Notes under the pieces: model-generated
Told to the model about the DNA's origin: nothing
The model's database searches: none
Seen by the model: the letters and a program-made list of their open reading frames with translations, nothing else
Part shown: positions 9,581 through 36,952 of the stretch, one piece after another
Layout of the letters: every line of letters begins with the position of its first letter
Position numbering within the stretch: position 1 is the first letter of the stretch
Made by a program: the position numbers and the translations under genes
Source: Patescibacteria group bacterium AH-259-L07
GTDB taxonomy: Bacteria > Patescibacteriota > Patescibacteriia > UBA2591 > UBA6264
NCBI GenBank assembly: GCA_027718005.1
Contig: JALLOP010000001.1
Coordinates: forward strand, 1 to 39,504
Length of the DNA: 39,504 nucleotides
Reading direction: 5' to 3'

Positions 9581-12500
9581 AAGGCCGGTTCCCGCGGGGA
9601 TTAATTGTCCCACAATTACATTTTCTTTTAACCCGCGTAAATAATCAGGCCGCCCGCTAATTGCAGCATTAACTAACACACGAGATGTTTCTTGAAAACT
9701 CGCAGCAGAAAGCCAGCTGTCCGTAGAAAGAGAAACTCTCGTGATACCAGTTAACAATTCTTTCACTTTGGCAGGTCTCTTATCTATTTTTTTAGCTTTT
9801 TCATTTGCCTCAATAGCATATGACTTTGGCACAATTTCTCCTGGTAAAAGATCAGTATCGCCAGAATCCACTACTAATACGCGGGAAAATATTTGACGAA
9901 TAATGAGCTCAACATGTTTGTCATTTAATTTTTGTCCCTGAGATGAATAAATATATTGAATTTCCCGCAATATATATTTTTCTACCTCTTCTTTACCGCG
10001 CAATTCATAGAGTTCACGCAAATCCAAACTTCCATCAGTTAATTGCTGACCCTTCTCTACCTTATCTTTGTCTTTAACCCATATGGTATATCCGGCCACA
10101 TCATGCTCTTCATGTTTTTCCCCCTCATATGTTACCGTAACCACCGTATCTTTAATACTGACTTTTCCGCTGTGGCGTGCTTTAACTTTTTGTTTTCCAA
10201 TCGTTGCAATACTATCACCTTTTTTAACTTTTTGCCCTTGTTTAACTTTAAGTTTTGCTTTTTTGCCCGCAATGGTATACGTATCTTCTTGTGTGCTAGA
10301 ATAGGTAATCCTAATTCTTTTTTGATCATCTGATGAGATCATCTTAACAGGGCCCTTATGTCTAGCCATAATTGCTTTCCGCTTTACTGGCCTAACTTCA
10401 AACAGCTCTTCAACGCGCGGAAGCCCTTGCGTAATATCTCTCCCTGCAACACCACCGGTATGAAACGTTCTCAAAGTCAGCTGCGTTCCTGGCTCGCCAA
10501 TACTCTGCGCTGCAATAATACCAACTGGTGTACCAGGCGTAACCGGCTCATTATAACTTAAATCATAACCATAGCATCGCGCGCATATACCGCGCACTGA
10601 TTGACACGTTAATACCGATCGAATCCTTACCTCTTCAGGATCTGCATTTTGTATTTCCTCTGCCTTATCATATGATATAACATCATTTTTGCGAACAATA
10701 ACAGCCTTTGATTTTGGGTCATGGATTGCCTTTGCTGCTACCCTGCCAAATAAACGCGTTTGCCAATTTTCTCCCATTTTTGTATTGTCTTCACGCGTGA
10801 ACTTAAAACTCTTTGTACTCTTACAATCATTTTTAGTAATAATAATGTCCTGGCATACATCAACCATGCGCCGGGTTAAATATCCCGCACTCGCAGTACG
10901 AAGCGCGGTATCAGATACACCTTTTCGCGAACCATGGGTAGAAATAAAATATTCTAACACATTAAATCCTTCCTTAAATGAAGATTTAATAGGGAGCTCA
11001 ATTAATCTGCCGGTTGGCGAAGATACAATACCACGCATACCAAACATTTGGGTAAGCTGTGCCCATGAACCCCGTGCACCGGATTCAACCATAGAAAATA
11101 TGGGACTAAATTCAGGATCTCGTTTTCTTACCACCTCAGTAATTTTATCTTTTGTGCCAATCCACACTTCAATACTTTTTAAATATCGTTCATTCTCAGA
11201 CAATAATCCTGTCTCGTATTGATTTCTAACCTCATCAATACGCTTTTCTGCCTCGGCAAGGATCTCTTTTTTTTGCTCCAAGTCAGGCAAATCATCCATT
11301 CCCCACGAAAGTCCTGATCCTGTTAAGTACGTGAGTGTAGTTTGCTTAATTTGATCCAACAATTCAACTGCCTTATCTCTGCCATATTTTTGAATTGATT
11401 TAATTACAATTTGTTTTAACGTCCCTTTATCAACCACGGTATCCATAGTATAAATTCCTTTTGGCAGAATTGCATTAAATAACAGCCGTCCCACACTCAC
11501 TTGTCTGCGTTGAGATCCCTCGCTCGCTCGGGATGACACCTCCGGTGTCACTCTAACGTTAATTTTCTCTTGAAGCGTAATTTTCCCGGTTGAGTATGCC
11601 AACACTGCTTCATCAATACTACTAAAATTCGGATATTCTTTTTTTTTATCTTTTTTGTGAATATAGGTCATATAATACGCGCCCCAGATCATATCTTGCG
11701 TTGGGGTCACAATTGGCTCGCCCGTTGCCGGCTTTAACAAATTGTGTGTTGAGAGAATAATATTTTTTGCCTCATCACGTGCCTGACTCGTAATAGGAAC
11801 GTGTACCGCCATTTGATCTCCATCAAAATCAGCATTAAATGCTACACATACCAAGGGATGGATTTGAATCGCTTTTCCTTCAATTAATACTGGCTGGAAC
11901 GCTTGAATGCCTAATCGATGAAGTGTTGGCGCACGATTCAATAATACATAGGTATCTTTAATAATTTCTTCTAAAATAGCATATACCTCTTCAGTGCCTG
12001 TCTCAATTAAACGATTGGCGGACCTCACATTATGAACAATTTCTCGCTTAATTAATTCGGAAGCAATAAACGGCTTAAACAATTCCACTGCCATAAGCTT
12101 TGGCAGACCGCACTGACTTAACTTCAGGCGCGGTCCAACCACAATAACAGATCGGCCTGAATAATCTACGCGCTTCCCAAGTAAATTCTGTCGAAATCGC
12201 CCCTGCTTTCCTTTTAAAATATCAGCTAAGGATTTCAACGGCCTTCGCTGGCCAGTCGAGGCAATGGTTGTTTTCCCGCTTCGCATTTCATTATCAATTA
12301 ATGCATCAACTGCTTCTTGAAGCATTCTCTTTTCATTGCGTAAAATCACCTCTGGTGCATGCAAATCATACAATCGTTTTAAACGATTATTGCGATTGAT
12401 TACCCGTCGATACAAATCATTTAAATCTGAAGACGCAAACCTGCCGCCATCTAACGGCACTAATGGCCTTAGTTCTGGTGGAATCACCGGTACCGCACGG

Positions 12501-13524: not shown

Positions 13525-16500
13525 CTATCGGCTCGATTTTCTATTATTTCTTCTCGATGGGAGTTTCCTACCTCGTCGCAGCATATCAACCCCCAGCGCT
13601 AATCCCTTTAATTCGCGCACCAATACGCTAAATGATTCTGGAATATGAATCTCCTTAATAGGTTCATCTTTAATAATTGACTCATACGCCTTAGTTCGCC
13701 CAATCACATCATCGGATTTAATGGTCAACATTTCTTGAAGGGCATTCGCCGCACCATATCCTTCAAGCGCCCATACTTCCATTTCTCCAAATCGCTGCCC
13801 TCCAAACTGCGCTTTTCCACCTAATGGCTGCTGGGTAATCAATGAATATGGCCCAATTGAACGTTGATGAATTTTGTCTTCAACCAAATGGTTGAGTTTC
13901 ATCATGTAAATATAGCCAATGGTTATTGGCTCCTTAAATTGCTCGCTGGTTCTTCCATCATAGAGCATAACCTTGCCGCTCTCAGAATACCCTGCACGCT
14001 TAAGTTCACGTTTAATCTCAATCATGGTAACGCCATTTAATACAGGGCTTGCTGCCTTATACCCTAATGCCTCGGCAGCTAAACCTAAATGTGTTTCTAA
14101 AATTTGTCCTAAATTCATTCGAGAAACTACACCTAATGGATTTAAAATAATATCAATGGGTGTGCCATCTTTTAAATAGGGCACATCTTCCTCAGCCACA
14201 ATGCGCGATATAACTCCTTTATTTCCATGACGGCCTGCCATTTTGTCACCAATTTGTACCTTACGCAGATCAGCAATTAACACACTTATAGATTTAATCA
14301 CCCCTGACGGCAATTTATCTCCTTTATCACGGGAAAATATTTTTACATCAATAACTTTCCCATGCTCACCATGCTCTAAATACAAAGAGGAGTCACGAAC
14401 ATCCTGCGCTTTTTCACCGAAGATCGCACGCAAAAGTTTTTCTTCTGCTGTCAGCTCAATCTCGCCCTTTGGTGTAATTTTGCCCACTAAAATATCGCCA
14501 GACTGTACCTCTGCACCAATGCGTACAATTCCTTCATCATCAAGATTTTTTAACTTTTCTTCACTTACATTAGGAATATCACACGTCATCATTTCCGGTC
14601 CAAACTTTGTCTCGCGAATATCAATGGTGTGTTCATCAATATGAAGCGACGTGTACAGATCACTTTGCACTAATCGTGACGATATTAAAATGGCATCTTC
14701 ATAATTTCCTCCCTCCCATGGCATAAACGCAACCAATATATTTTGCCCCAAGGCTAACTCTCCATTTTCAATTGAAGGTCCTTCTGCTAAAACCTCGCCA
14801 GATTTTACCTGCTGTCCCTTGGCTACAGTTGGCCGCTGATTAAAGCATGTATCAAAATTAGACCGTTGGAATTTATTAAGGTAATATAAATCTTTCTCGC
14901 CTGAAGTGTAAGAAATAGTAACATGATTTGCATCAACACTCGTTACTCGTCCTGCTTTTTGAGCATGAATCATATGATCAGAATCTTTTGCAATACGCGC
15001 CTCAATCCCTGTTCCAACAAGAGGAGAAGCTGGTCTTACTAACGGCACTGCTTGCCGTTGCATGTTAGTCCCCATCAAAGCCCGTACGCCATCGTCGTGC
15101 TCTAAAAAGGGAATCAAACTTGTTGCTACACTGACAATTTGATTTGATGCTACATCAATAAATTCAACTTCTTGGACGCGACAAAATCCTGGACGGCCAT
15201 GAATTCGTGCCTCAACTCTTTCTTCACTAATGTTACCATTTTTATCAATGGGAGTAGAATAGGGCGCTAAAATATGCTGCTCTTCCTCATGCGCATTTAA
15301 ATAGGCAATTTCATTAGTAAGTTTTCCCTTTACTACCTTACGATACGGGGTCTCTATAAAGCCATATTCGCTCAGTCGTGCATAACAGCTTAGATGGCTC
15401 ACTAAACCAACATTTGGGCCTTCTGGTGTTGCAATCGGACAAATTTTCCCATAATACGTTCTATGTACATCGCGAACCTCAAAGCCGGCACGCTCTCGGG
15501 TGAGACCTCCCGGACCTACTGCGGTTAACCTGCGTTTGTGTTCAAGTTCTGAAAGAATATTGGTTTGATCCATAAACTGAGATAATTGCGATGACATAAA
15601 AAACTCTCTAATCACGCCGGTAATGGGCCGCACATTGATCAATTGCCCTGGCGTTAATGCTTTTTGCTCAACAACGCTCATTCTATCCCGAATAATTCTT
15701 TGAAGCCGTAACATTCCTACGCGCATCCTATTCTGAACTGATTCACCAACAGCACGTACTCGTCTATTTGATAAATGATCAATATCATCAGGTAATGACT
15801 GATTGATACTCAGTCGTATTATCTCAGCAATTATAGGAACAATATCTTTCTGGCGCAATACGCGCTCTTTTACACTTTTATCAAAACCGAGTCGTTGATT
15901 CATCTTATACCGCCCCACCTTGCTTAGATCATATCGGTTTGATTTAAACAACATAGCATAAATCAATGATTTAGCATTATCAACCGTTGCCAGCTCTCCT
16001 GGCCGAATTTTTCTATACACCTCAATCAACCCCTCTTGTTCAGTCGAGGAAGGGTCTTTTTCTAATGTTGCATTAATATATTCAATCCCTGCCTGTCCGG
16101 CAGGCAGGCCTGAATTATCTTTTCCGCCTGAAGCGGAAAACTGTTTAAATGCATTTAAAATTTCTTTATCCGTACCAAGTCCAAAAACTCTCAGGAGTGC
16201 GGTTATGGCCGTTTTTCTTTGTCTATCAATGCGCACCCACATCACACCTCTCGTATCAATTTCAAACTCAAGCCATGCACCACGGTCAGGAATAATCTTT
16301 GCACCATAAAAAAATCGCCCTTTGATTGATTCTCCTGAAAAGAATACGCCGGGCGATCTCACAAGCTGCTGCACTACAACGCGCTCAATGCCATTAATAA
16401 TAAAAGTTCCGCGTTTTGTCATCAGCGGAATGTCACTAAAATATACTTCTTGTGAAGTCTTCTTACCGGTTTTCTTATTAATTAAGCGCGCTTTTACGGT

Positions 16501-33955: not shown

Positions 33956-33989
33956 AAGTTTGGATACAGGCATCATTCCTTTCAAACTT
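33956..33989. repeat. Conserved 34-nt hairpin (AAGTTTG-20 nt-CAAACTT), second copy, between the map stop and the sucC-like start
   Basis: 16 nt (TTAAAGTTTGGATACA) are identical to 24154-24169. Confidence 0.85.
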
Positions 33990-34776
33990 ATATTTTAGTC
34001 AAGACTTCACAACCTTTTTTAGTAATTACAATGGTATGTTCAAAATGAGCAGACAAACTGCCGTCATCAGTAGCAACGGTCCATCCATCATCTAATGTTT
34101 TTACTTTCCAATGGCCAATATTGACCATTGGCTCAATTGCTACCGTCATACCTTGCTTCAAAACAATACCGGTATCTGGTTTGCCATAATTTAAAATAGT
34201 TGGCTCTTCATGAAGATTTTTGCCAATGCCATGCCCGGATAGTTGCCGAACAACTGAAAACCCATTTTTTTCAACATAAGACTGCACCGCATACGAGAGA
34301 TCACCTAAATGGATTCCTGGCTTAATTGTATTAAGCGCAATATCTAGAGATTTTTTCGTTACTTTAATTAATCTTTTTGCCTTGCTTGATATTTTGCCTA
34401 CTGGTATGGTCACTGCCATATCAGCATAATATCCCTGATACAACACCCCGCAATCAAGTCCAATAATATCACCAGATTGAATCACTTGATCTTTTGATGG
34501 AATAGCATGAACCACCTGTTCGTTAATTGACGTACATAGGGTATGAGGATAAGCACCCCGGCTTCCCGGGGAAGCCGGGGTGCGGGGAGGAGGGTAACCT
34601 TTAAAAGCTGGCTTTGCGCCAGCTTTTACAATTAAATCTTCTGCTAAGCCATCCAATTCAAATGTTGAAATACCGGGTTTAACATCAGATACAACGCGCG
34701 AAAGTACACTGGCAAGTATTTTGCCGGCAGTTCGCATAATTTCAATTTCTTCTGGAATTCTAATAAAAATTACCAT
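33988..34776 (-). CDS. map: Methionine aminopeptidase type I
   Basis: EEIEIMRTAGKIL, SINEQVVHAIP, DIIGLDCG, GHGIG, IEPM, HFEHT. Confidence 0.95.
   Translation of the reverse strand: MVIFIRIPEEIEIMRTAGKILASVLSRVVSDVKPGISTFELDGLAEDLIVKAGAKPAFKGYPPPRTPASPGSRGAYPHTLCTSINEQVVHAIPSKDQVIQSGDIIGLDCGVLYQGYYADMAVTIPVGKISSKAKRLIKVTKKSLDIALNTIKPGIHLGDLSYAVQSYVEKNGFSVVRQLSGHGIGKNLHEEPTILNYGKPDTGIVLKQGMTVAIEPMVNIGHWKVKTLDDGWTVATDDGSLSAHFEHTIVITKKGCEVLTKI
34554..34582. repeat. 29-nt GC-rich hairpin palindrome (13-bp arms CACCCCGGCTTCC / GGAAGCCGGGGTG) in frame inside map
   Basis: Read directly. It is translated within ...GYPPPRTPASPGSRGAYPH... Confidence 0.9.
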
Positions 34777-36891: not shown

Positions 36892-36952
36892 GTAGCGAAA
36901 AAGATTTCGCTACAATTATGTGCACCCCGCACTCAACGCGTTGAGCGCGGGG
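36892..36952. repeat. Two GC-rich hairpins at the rplO/secY junction (GTAGCGAAA/TTTCGCTAC, and a 28-nt near-palindrome at 36925-36952)
   Basis: Read directly. The second encodes the last residues of L15 (..APRSTR). Confidence 0.8.

Follow-up and report, generated by a model that had tools for sequence, protein, structure and literature searches.

The gene map in the 39,504-nt window analyzed here (positions 1 to 39,504 of contig JALLOP010000001.1 of Patescibacteria group bacterium AH-259-L07, assembly GCA_027718005.1) encodes a type I methionine aminopeptidase (MetAP) and contains a GC-rich palindrome that is translated in frame. The palindrome is probably a copy of an element of about 40 nt, resembling the repetitive extragenic palindromes (REPs) and REPINs of other bacteria, that has multiplied in a lineage of Patescibacteria and is probably selfish, and we consider it likely that a dispersed palindromic element has been tolerated in a permissive loop of the MetAP. 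On the best reading of the data, the insert in map is a REP/REPIN-like element translated in a tolerant loop, and the peptide that it encodes, PPPRTPASPGSRGA, is probably a mere passenger in the MetAP. The features concerned are as follows.

33988 to 34776, minus strand: map, type I MetAP of 262 residues, identified by Pfam and Protein Data Bank (PDB) matches.
34552 to 34593, minus strand: in-frame insert of 42 nt, or 14 codons (PPPRTPASPGSRGA), composed of a C-rich tag, the palindrome, and one base.
34553 to 34583, minus strand: palindrome within map with 15-bp arms, GCACCCCGGCTTCCC-C-GGGAAGCCGGGGTGC on the coding strand.
34584 to 34593, minus strand: C-rich 5' tag CCTCCTCCCC (family consensus CCCTCYCC), outside the hairpin.

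A preliminary description of this DNA recorded a hairpin, CACCCCGGCTTCC-CGG-GGAAGCCGGGGTG, at positions 34554 to 34582 inside map; it is present there, and its true arms are longer by one pair at each end, forming the perfect inverted repeat GCACCCCGGCTTCCC-G-GGGAAGCCGGGGTGC at 34553 to 34583 with 15-bp arms, a 1-nt center, and 80% GC. The reading in frame is GY-PPPRTPASPGSRGA-YPHTLCTSIN, which bears out the earlier statement that the hairpin is translated between the conserved GY and YP..C.SINE segments. The same description had called this segment short in other type I MetAPs, and indeed the Escherichia coli and Thermotoga maritima enzymes have two residues at this position, the insert adding 12 relative to the T. 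maritima structure 1o0x. The insert is 79% GC, whereas the map gene is about 39% GC. From base composition, perfect 15-bp arms with a loop of 0 to 8 nt are expected 7.6e-4 times per window and 0.027 times per genome, and in 20 first-order Markov resamples of the window no hairpin had arms reaching 13 bp. Folded as RNA, the coding strand of the segment reaches −32.6 kcal/mol (z = −5.96), and none of 200 shuffles was equally stable; there is no terminator-like T tract at the map hairpin and no Rfam match above threshold. The source assembly (G000) is a metagenome-assembled genome of 1.41 Mb in 148 contigs, 75.6% complete and 37.8% GC, in which the exact 29-mer, whose recurrence in the genome the preliminary description had proposed to look for, is unique, with no second match at three or fewer mismatches.

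A degenerate search for the core of the hairpin recovered approximately 12 copies in the source assembly, on 10 contigs and including that in map, so that the family, like REPs and REPINs, is a short palindromic repeat in many dispersed copies of one genome. Aligned in one orientation, the copies give the consensus CCCTCYCC - GAnnC - CCGRCYTCC - 3-4 nt - GGARGYCGG - GnnTC, a unit of about 40 nt consisting of a tag that has no complementary partner and a hairpin with arms of 14 to 15 bp and a loop of 1 to 4 nt. Some 10 of the 12 copies have a similar pyrimidine tract immediately 5' of the hairpin, as does a copy from a MetAP gene of a second lineage (P0006, discussed below). The tag strand is on the G-rich strand in 9 of 12 copies, and 10 of the 12 share the orientation of the genes around them, but as a sign of strand-specific insertion this is suggestive only. 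The copy at C79:12066 of the source assembly and one in G030, a genome from another family of the order, consist of exactly two REP units inverted and separated by 4 to 6 nt, which is the layout of a REPIN; in the remaining copies, the outer stem has drifted with both halves still complementary. Exact matches to the core number 10 in the source assembly, one in the only other species of the genus (G001), one in G030, and none in 58 further relatives, with no matches to a reversed-pattern control. This distribution points to a lineage-specific expansion of the family in the source genome.

The stem was analyzed in an alignment of 13 copies, that in map and 12 others, over 14 pairs. In 98.4% of the stem cells the bases are paired. 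Six of the 14 pairs, in the outer stem, are altered on both sides, two of them with four different Watson-Crick pairs, so that the changes in the stem are compensatory, as is found in REP and REPIN families. There are 28 cells with double changes compared with 7.0 ± 2.5 in shuffles, none of 500 shuffles reaching the observed number, and pairing falls to 53-60% when the partner is shifted by one column. Only one cell is G-U. Because G-U pairs should be acceptable in a helix of RNA, the constraint appears to act on DNA and not on RNA, and the restriction of covariation to Watson-Crick pairs points to a DNA hairpin or to the copying of one arm from the other. It would be the Watson-Crick pairing of one arm with the other, in the DNA itself, that is maintained.

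Besides map, copies of the family lie in frame in gatB, murC, rsmA/ksgA, and htrA (genes named by Pfam), bringing the in-frame copies to at least 5 out of about 12, a departure from the mostly extragenic location of REPs and REPINs. The gatB copy, on contig C98, adds 20 residues and the murC copy 9, and both are missing from the orthologues in G001. In gatB, after EEDTAKLLHP, a half element comprising the tag and left arm (CCCCTTTCC-GATTC-CCGGCCTCC) directly precedes the full element, which suggests nested or repeated events at one site. The htrA copy, by contrast with those missing from G001, is common to the two species of the genus; 41 of its 42 nt are identical, the sole difference being in the loop, compared with 86% identity over the gene, and it sits within an otherwise indel-rich linker. 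Stronger conservation of this shared copy was considered, but for third positions alone it is not significant (p about 0.07, a hand estimate). Copies of the family are read in three different frames, and therefore encode no common peptide, and some lie in non-coding DNA; the peptide of the element is not itself conserved. At all four comparable sites (map, gatB, murC, and the loop of the P0006 lineage), a native loop of 15 to 21 nt has been replaced and not split, a pattern compatible with trimming after the event, with a further insertion onto an older copy, or with a templated patch. An apparent target motif shared by the replaced loops (ACAAAGG-like) was rejected, as it is indistinguishable from the usual Lys and Gly codons of AT-rich loops. 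It should also be noted that murC (C127:22314-23966) contains a second, different in-frame palindrome, which encodes NLPAGRQG from CCTGCCTGCCGGCAGGCAGG, and that some 80 residues at the N-terminus of its open frame form an unusual, GC-rich extension.

The open reading frame of map, which is preceded by secY and adk, matches Peptidase_M24 (PF00557) at 8e-51 and type I MetAP structures, the best in the PDB being 1o0x (2e-75), the T. maritima MetAP, which was used as the structural reference. Its product is the sole MetAP match in the 75.6% complete assembly. Asp108, Asp119, His182, Glu215, and Glu246 do not vary in the MetAP alignment, nor does His90; from the alignment with the E. coli enzyme, the first five are taken to be the metal ligands, corresponding to Asp97, Asp108, His171, Glu204, and Glu235 of that enzyme. 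The preliminary description had suggested alignment and modeling to see whether the insert forms a surface loop, and in an AlphaFold2 model from 22 sequences (mean pLDDT, the predicted local distance difference test, 95.1), it is a disordered surface loop, residues 66-71 within it being the only part of the protein with pLDDT <50 and no other part of the model being disordered. The model superimposes on 1o0x with template modeling scores of 0.93/0.98 and a root mean square deviation of 1.3 Å, indicating that the predicted pita-bread fold of the type I MetAPs is intact despite the insert. The insert falls between the conserved Tyr61 and Tyr76, which align with Tyr62 and Tyr65 of E. coli MetAP; the latter two line the S1 methionine pocket, so that the loop would presumably bulge beside the rim of the pocket.

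MetAP was located in 40 of 41 related genomes, and the loop between FKGY and YP..C.SIN could be read in 29; it is 6 residues long in nearly all species of the same family and 2 in more distant relatives, and ranges from 2 to 16 residues across the 120 best database homologues, all of which are Patescibacteria-like. This range indicates that the site is length-tolerant and that long loops are not unusual here in themselves. In a codon alignment, G001 has ETKGKK (18 nt, 28% GC) where the source genome has the 42 nt of the insert. Among the MetAP homologues compared, a GC-rich palindrome is present in the loop only in the source genome and in P0006, P0002 and P0003 containing decayed versions. 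P0002 (82% identical), which is found in three Logan assemblies, has an AT-rich decayed copy of the same length, PPKQSKSSSKIRRA, and P0003 (77% identical) has VPPRTSTRNA with the same boundaries but with the tip of the hairpin deleted (CCG CCT CGC ACA TCG ACA CGG AAT GCC). P0006 (71% identical, from an ENA contig) has KPPSRTPTSSGGRGS at the same loop, and its DNA, CCTCCCTCC-CGAACCCCGACCTCC-TCT-GGCGGTCGGGGTTCC, is a 42-nt element of the family of the map hairpin. A scan of metagenomes for close MetAP relatives gave a best match of 57% identity and no more palindromic loops.

In a tree calculated without the loop, the MetAP of the source genome, P0002, P0003, and the uninserted P0004/G001 form one clade (Shimodaira-Hasegawa-like approximate likelihood ratio test, SH-aLRT, 100), and a tree that groups the three insert-bearing sequences of the genus is not rejected (approximately unbiased, AU, test, p = 0.235), so that a single gain within the genus is possible on this phylogeny. 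The P0006 lineage carries the element while its sister P0014 (SH-aLRT 99) has the ordinary, uninserted KHKDRI, so that this MetAP loop has acquired the element independently at least twice. The 4-fold sites of the map gene are down to about 55% identity and, if there was a single gain in the genus, a rough estimate of the neutral chance that all 15 pairs would have stayed complementary is about 1e-4 to 1e-3. Either the arms in map are held complementary by a process acting on DNA or the site has been hit again recently.

P0002 and P0003 have versions of the insert that are bounded in the same way and come from independent assemblies (three from Logan in the case of P0002), which indicates that the insert is real and has a history. 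An artifact of sequencing or assembly, such as a chimeric or fold-back join arising during metagenome assembly, might be suspected from an assembly of 148 contigs that is 75.6% complete and from the fact that the exact protein is a single member in the protein collection, but the frame of an essential single-copy gene is preserved, the related versions come from other samples, and the family turns up again on 10 or more further contigs and in the sister species G001. An artifact is therefore extremely improbable.

The replacement of native codons at all four sites that have an uninserted orthologue, with no target duplication, is also what would be expected if the hairpin were not transposed but written over the native loop as a templated patch, by template switching, gene conversion, or re-insertion on a decayed copy. 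There may then be no dedicated transposase, and the arms might be kept perfect by an intrastrand correction of the quasi-palindrome type. In keeping with this, the gatB half element lies beside a full one, each copy has its own outer-stem sequence and yet perfect complementarity, a single ancestral gain is not rejected by the AU test, and the map copy is perfect in spite of the decay of those with the same boundaries in P0002 and P0003 and of no more than about 55% identity at 4-fold sites. However, microhomology at the junctions has not been demonstrated, the conserved unpaired C-rich tag and conserved core indicate a defined mobile unit, RAYT-like genes (RAYT, REP-associated tyrosine transposase; see below) with cognate palindromes are present, and later trimming of an over-long loop could equally have removed the native codons. 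We regard a patch of this type as unlikely. It is somewhat less likely still that hairpin elements are written into, or renewed at, specific loop-coding sites with replacement of native codons and retention of the frame, a possibility raised by the use of the same MetAP loop in two lineages, the overwriting of the native loop at four of four sites, and the contrast between the perfect copy and its decayed sisters. If true, REP-type DNA would act in a targeted or self-renewing manner within the essential genes of ultra-small bacteria, a mode of action so far undescribed.

The gain of the same type of element at the same site in two lineages, and the location of the loop between the tyrosines that match E. 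coli Tyr62 and Tyr65 of the S1 pocket, might instead reflect a selected functional extension of the MetAP or of its mRNA, affecting specificity, ribosome docking, pausing, processing, or stability of transcripts of the secY-adk-map operon. The identity of 41 of 42 nt between the htrA copies of the source genome and G001, in an indel-rich linker, is in the same direction. This interpretation is difficult to reconcile with the fact that the same DNA element occupies both non-coding DNA and unrelated genes, where it is read in three frames and encodes no common peptide, with its decay in the sister lineages P0002 and P0003, and with the ability of G001 to manage without it. The loop is predicted to be disordered, and the single G-U cell in the stem is unlike RNA structures, with no T tract or Rfam match to suggest an RNA element. 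A selected extension is consequently very unlikely, and the tolerated dispersed element is preferred.

If the element is mobile, candidates for the enzyme that mobilizes it are encoded in the source assembly, in which there are four Pfam Y1_Tnp matches, one in a fragment of an IS605-type transposase gene and the others in three paralogues of 190-226 residues.

C122:2001-3526, source assembly: IS605-type tnpA fragment with tnpB.

The three paralogues score 31-32 bits against the 23-bit Pfam cut-off, the sequence shows the HUH motif PNHFH, and their only NCBIfam match is REP_Tyr_transpos, the RAYT family, at 41.8 bits. The complete paralogue (C63:4288-4965, locus C63:4219-5024) has ATCGGGGGTC-S-GACCCCCGAT on both flanks and a third copy in frame inside the gene; the flanks are inverted copies, the sequence being AAAATCGGGGGTCGGACCCCCGATTTT upstream and identical downstream save for a complementary center base. 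The palindromes of the three paralogues are TCGGGGGTC-S-GACCCCCGA; TCGGGAG-CTCAA-CTCCCGA, followed by CTTTCC; and TCGGAGCTCCGA, the second and third of which each precede one of the other two paralogues, both genes being cut by contig ends. The second of these, with its CTTTCC, resembles the left arm of the map-type family, CTCCCGACTTCC. A similar arrangement is found more widely: among 11 Y1 loci of relatives (L294-L304), the gene could be delimited in nine, there being no open reading frame in two, and eight of the nine genes have a perfect palindrome of their own, of the type GGRRGTY-S-RACYYCC, next to them on one side at least and in five cases on both. This palindrome differs from genome to genome, its center base is complementary between the two sides, and many Y1 genes hold their own palindrome in frame at nt ~157-190 and ~704-718. 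Y1 genes of the RAYT-like type occur in 31 of 61 relatives, with up to 10 per genome.

From these observations we infer that the map-type family is a REPIN-type derivative of REP units that accompany Y1 genes. A HUH/Y1 transposase resembling RAYT, for which the three genes of the source assembly are candidates, would move or renew the element on single-stranded DNA, and selection would retain only those copies that preserve the frame in tolerant loops, such copies being kept because the compact genome has little intergenic DNA to house them. In map, the element would persist since the surface loop that it occupies in frame, between Tyr61 and Tyr76, is disordered and varies in length. The link to RAYT specifically, judged from sequence comparisons, is tentative and at best evenly balanced.

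Several observations weigh against this interpretation. No transposition event has been observed, and the four comparable sites show neither a target-site duplication nor a clean empty site. The 41.8 bits of the Y1 proteins are below the NCBIfam RAYT cut-off of 80, and a search of PDB sequences with the Y1 protein found none at E ≤ 0.01. No Y1 gene is flanked by the map-type family among the three paralogues of the 75.6% complete source assembly, which have related but different palindromes, and because Y1 genes occur in 31 of 61 relatives but the family in 3 genomes, the presence of the gene is no predictor of that of the family. The map-type family also lacks the classical GTAG or CGTC end tag of REPs, its 12 copies ending GAnnC...GnnTC after CCCTCYCC; another palindrome family of the source genome, CTACGAGGTCCGACCTCGTAG, does end in GTAG. 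The wider distribution of the family is left uninformed by a scan of all species genomes for the core, in which the matches listed were mostly in GC-rich genomes (Streptomyces, Bradyrhizobium, and others) and are possibly unrelated hairpins; about 10 of the 141 core matches listed were in DNA of <50% GC, none of those with a C-rich tag, and a scan of viral genomes gave 21 matches that were equally unspecific.

The closest known systems are the REP/REPIN-RAYT "REPtrons" (PMC3733652; Bertels & Rainey 2011, PMC3116915; PMC6006769), which are likewise GC-rich palindromes of 20-40 nt in tens of copies, form lineage-specific families with compensatory stem changes, in some units combine two inverted REPs into one long hairpin, and include HUH/Y1 genes flanked by their own palindromes as well as translated intragenic copies. 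REPs inside genes have been described as translated into 20-30 residues, RAYT and TIR-flanked TIRYT genes as flanked by their own repeats, and recB of two Xanthomonas species as carrying different REPs at roughly one position (PMC3733652, Di Nocera et al. 2013). The map-type family differs in having an unpaired C-rich tag instead of GTAG or CGTC, perfect arms of 14-15 bp with a loop of 1-4 nt, and conserved genes as the in-frame location of 5 or more of its approximately 12 copies, whereas REPs are mostly extragenic. Its hosts are Patescibacteria; the Y1 genes are multi-copy in many of the relatives and score below the NCBI RAYT cut-off, and no cognate gene for the family itself was found. A survey of HUH proteins (PMC6006769, Quentin et al. 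2018) leaves Patescibacteria unmentioned, and nothing specific was found in the literature on REP/RAYT or palindromic insertions in the candidate phyla radiation.

The Rickettsia palindromic elements (RPEs; Ogata et al. 2000, 2002, via PMC10969869 and PMC3733652) are also selfish in-frame palindromic repeats in unrelated housekeeping genes of a reduced genome, and are translated as extra segments thought to be tolerated at the protein surface, in agreement with the insert in map being the sole disordered part of the model. In-frame RPEs have been reviewed (PMC10969869), and some RPEs have been equated with CGTC-type REPs (PMC3733652). As first described, however, RPEs are about 150 bp long with a conserved peptide, whereas the map-type element has a length of about 40 nt, copies in three reading frames, a sequence unrelated to the RPEs, and hosts in another phylum. 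In its proposed mobility, the element resembles the IS200/IS605 group, in which the Y1 HUH protein TnpA recognizes a hairpin on single-stranded DNA with no target-site duplication, but it carries no transposase and is far smaller, and a conserved target tetranucleotide was not identified. Yeast mitochondrial DNA, which is AT-rich, also harbors palindromic GC-rich mini-elements, the GC clusters, which are sometimes in frame in protein-coding genes and differ from the map-type element in being organellar, eukaryotic, and unrelated in sequence.

Other palindromes are present in the window and elsewhere in the assembly. The insert in map was described initially as a third type of in-frame palindrome in this window, in agreement with the finding that rpoB and rpoC carry other GC-rich palindromes in frame: at 16085-16140, in the 1094-residue frame of rpoB, GLPAGQAG is translated from CCTGCCTGTCCGGCAGGCAGG, and at 11512-11553, the 1283-residue frame of rpoC contains RVTPEVSSRASEGSQ. 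At 36925-36952, the palindrome CCCCGCACTCAACGCGTTGAGCGCGGGG is located exactly at the annotated GTG start of secY and belongs to a further family, ACCCCGCACTCAA..TTGAGTGCGGGGT, which is seen on C84 as well; at C127:22257-22303, a hairpin with 21-bp arms consists of this family fused with CTCCCGACC arms. One further palindrome in the window is related to the REP units.

1765 to 1805, strand not assigned: related palindrome GAGGTCCGACCTT-15 nt-AAGGTCGGACCTC, with the same GAGGTC/GACCTC words as the REP units.

This palindrome has a long spacer and lies inside a 191-residue open frame of uncertain status. With respect to the genome as a whole, 1.41 Mb at 75.6% completeness is about twice the size of its relatives, 60 of which range from 0.5 to 1.3 Mb and are mostly 0.6-0.8 Mb.

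The findings suggest that a family of hairpin repeats can live in essential genes as translated, disordered loops where non-coding DNA is scarce, and in MetAP a single loop next to the substrate pocket has been hit more than once. Since inserts of this type are GC-rich and of low complexity, they may be misread by annotation and alignment pipelines. The covariation, being restricted to Watson-Crick pairs, provides a clean natural data set on how DNA palindromes stay perfect, and it is through such inserts that the surface loops of conserved enzymes may acquire new sequence.

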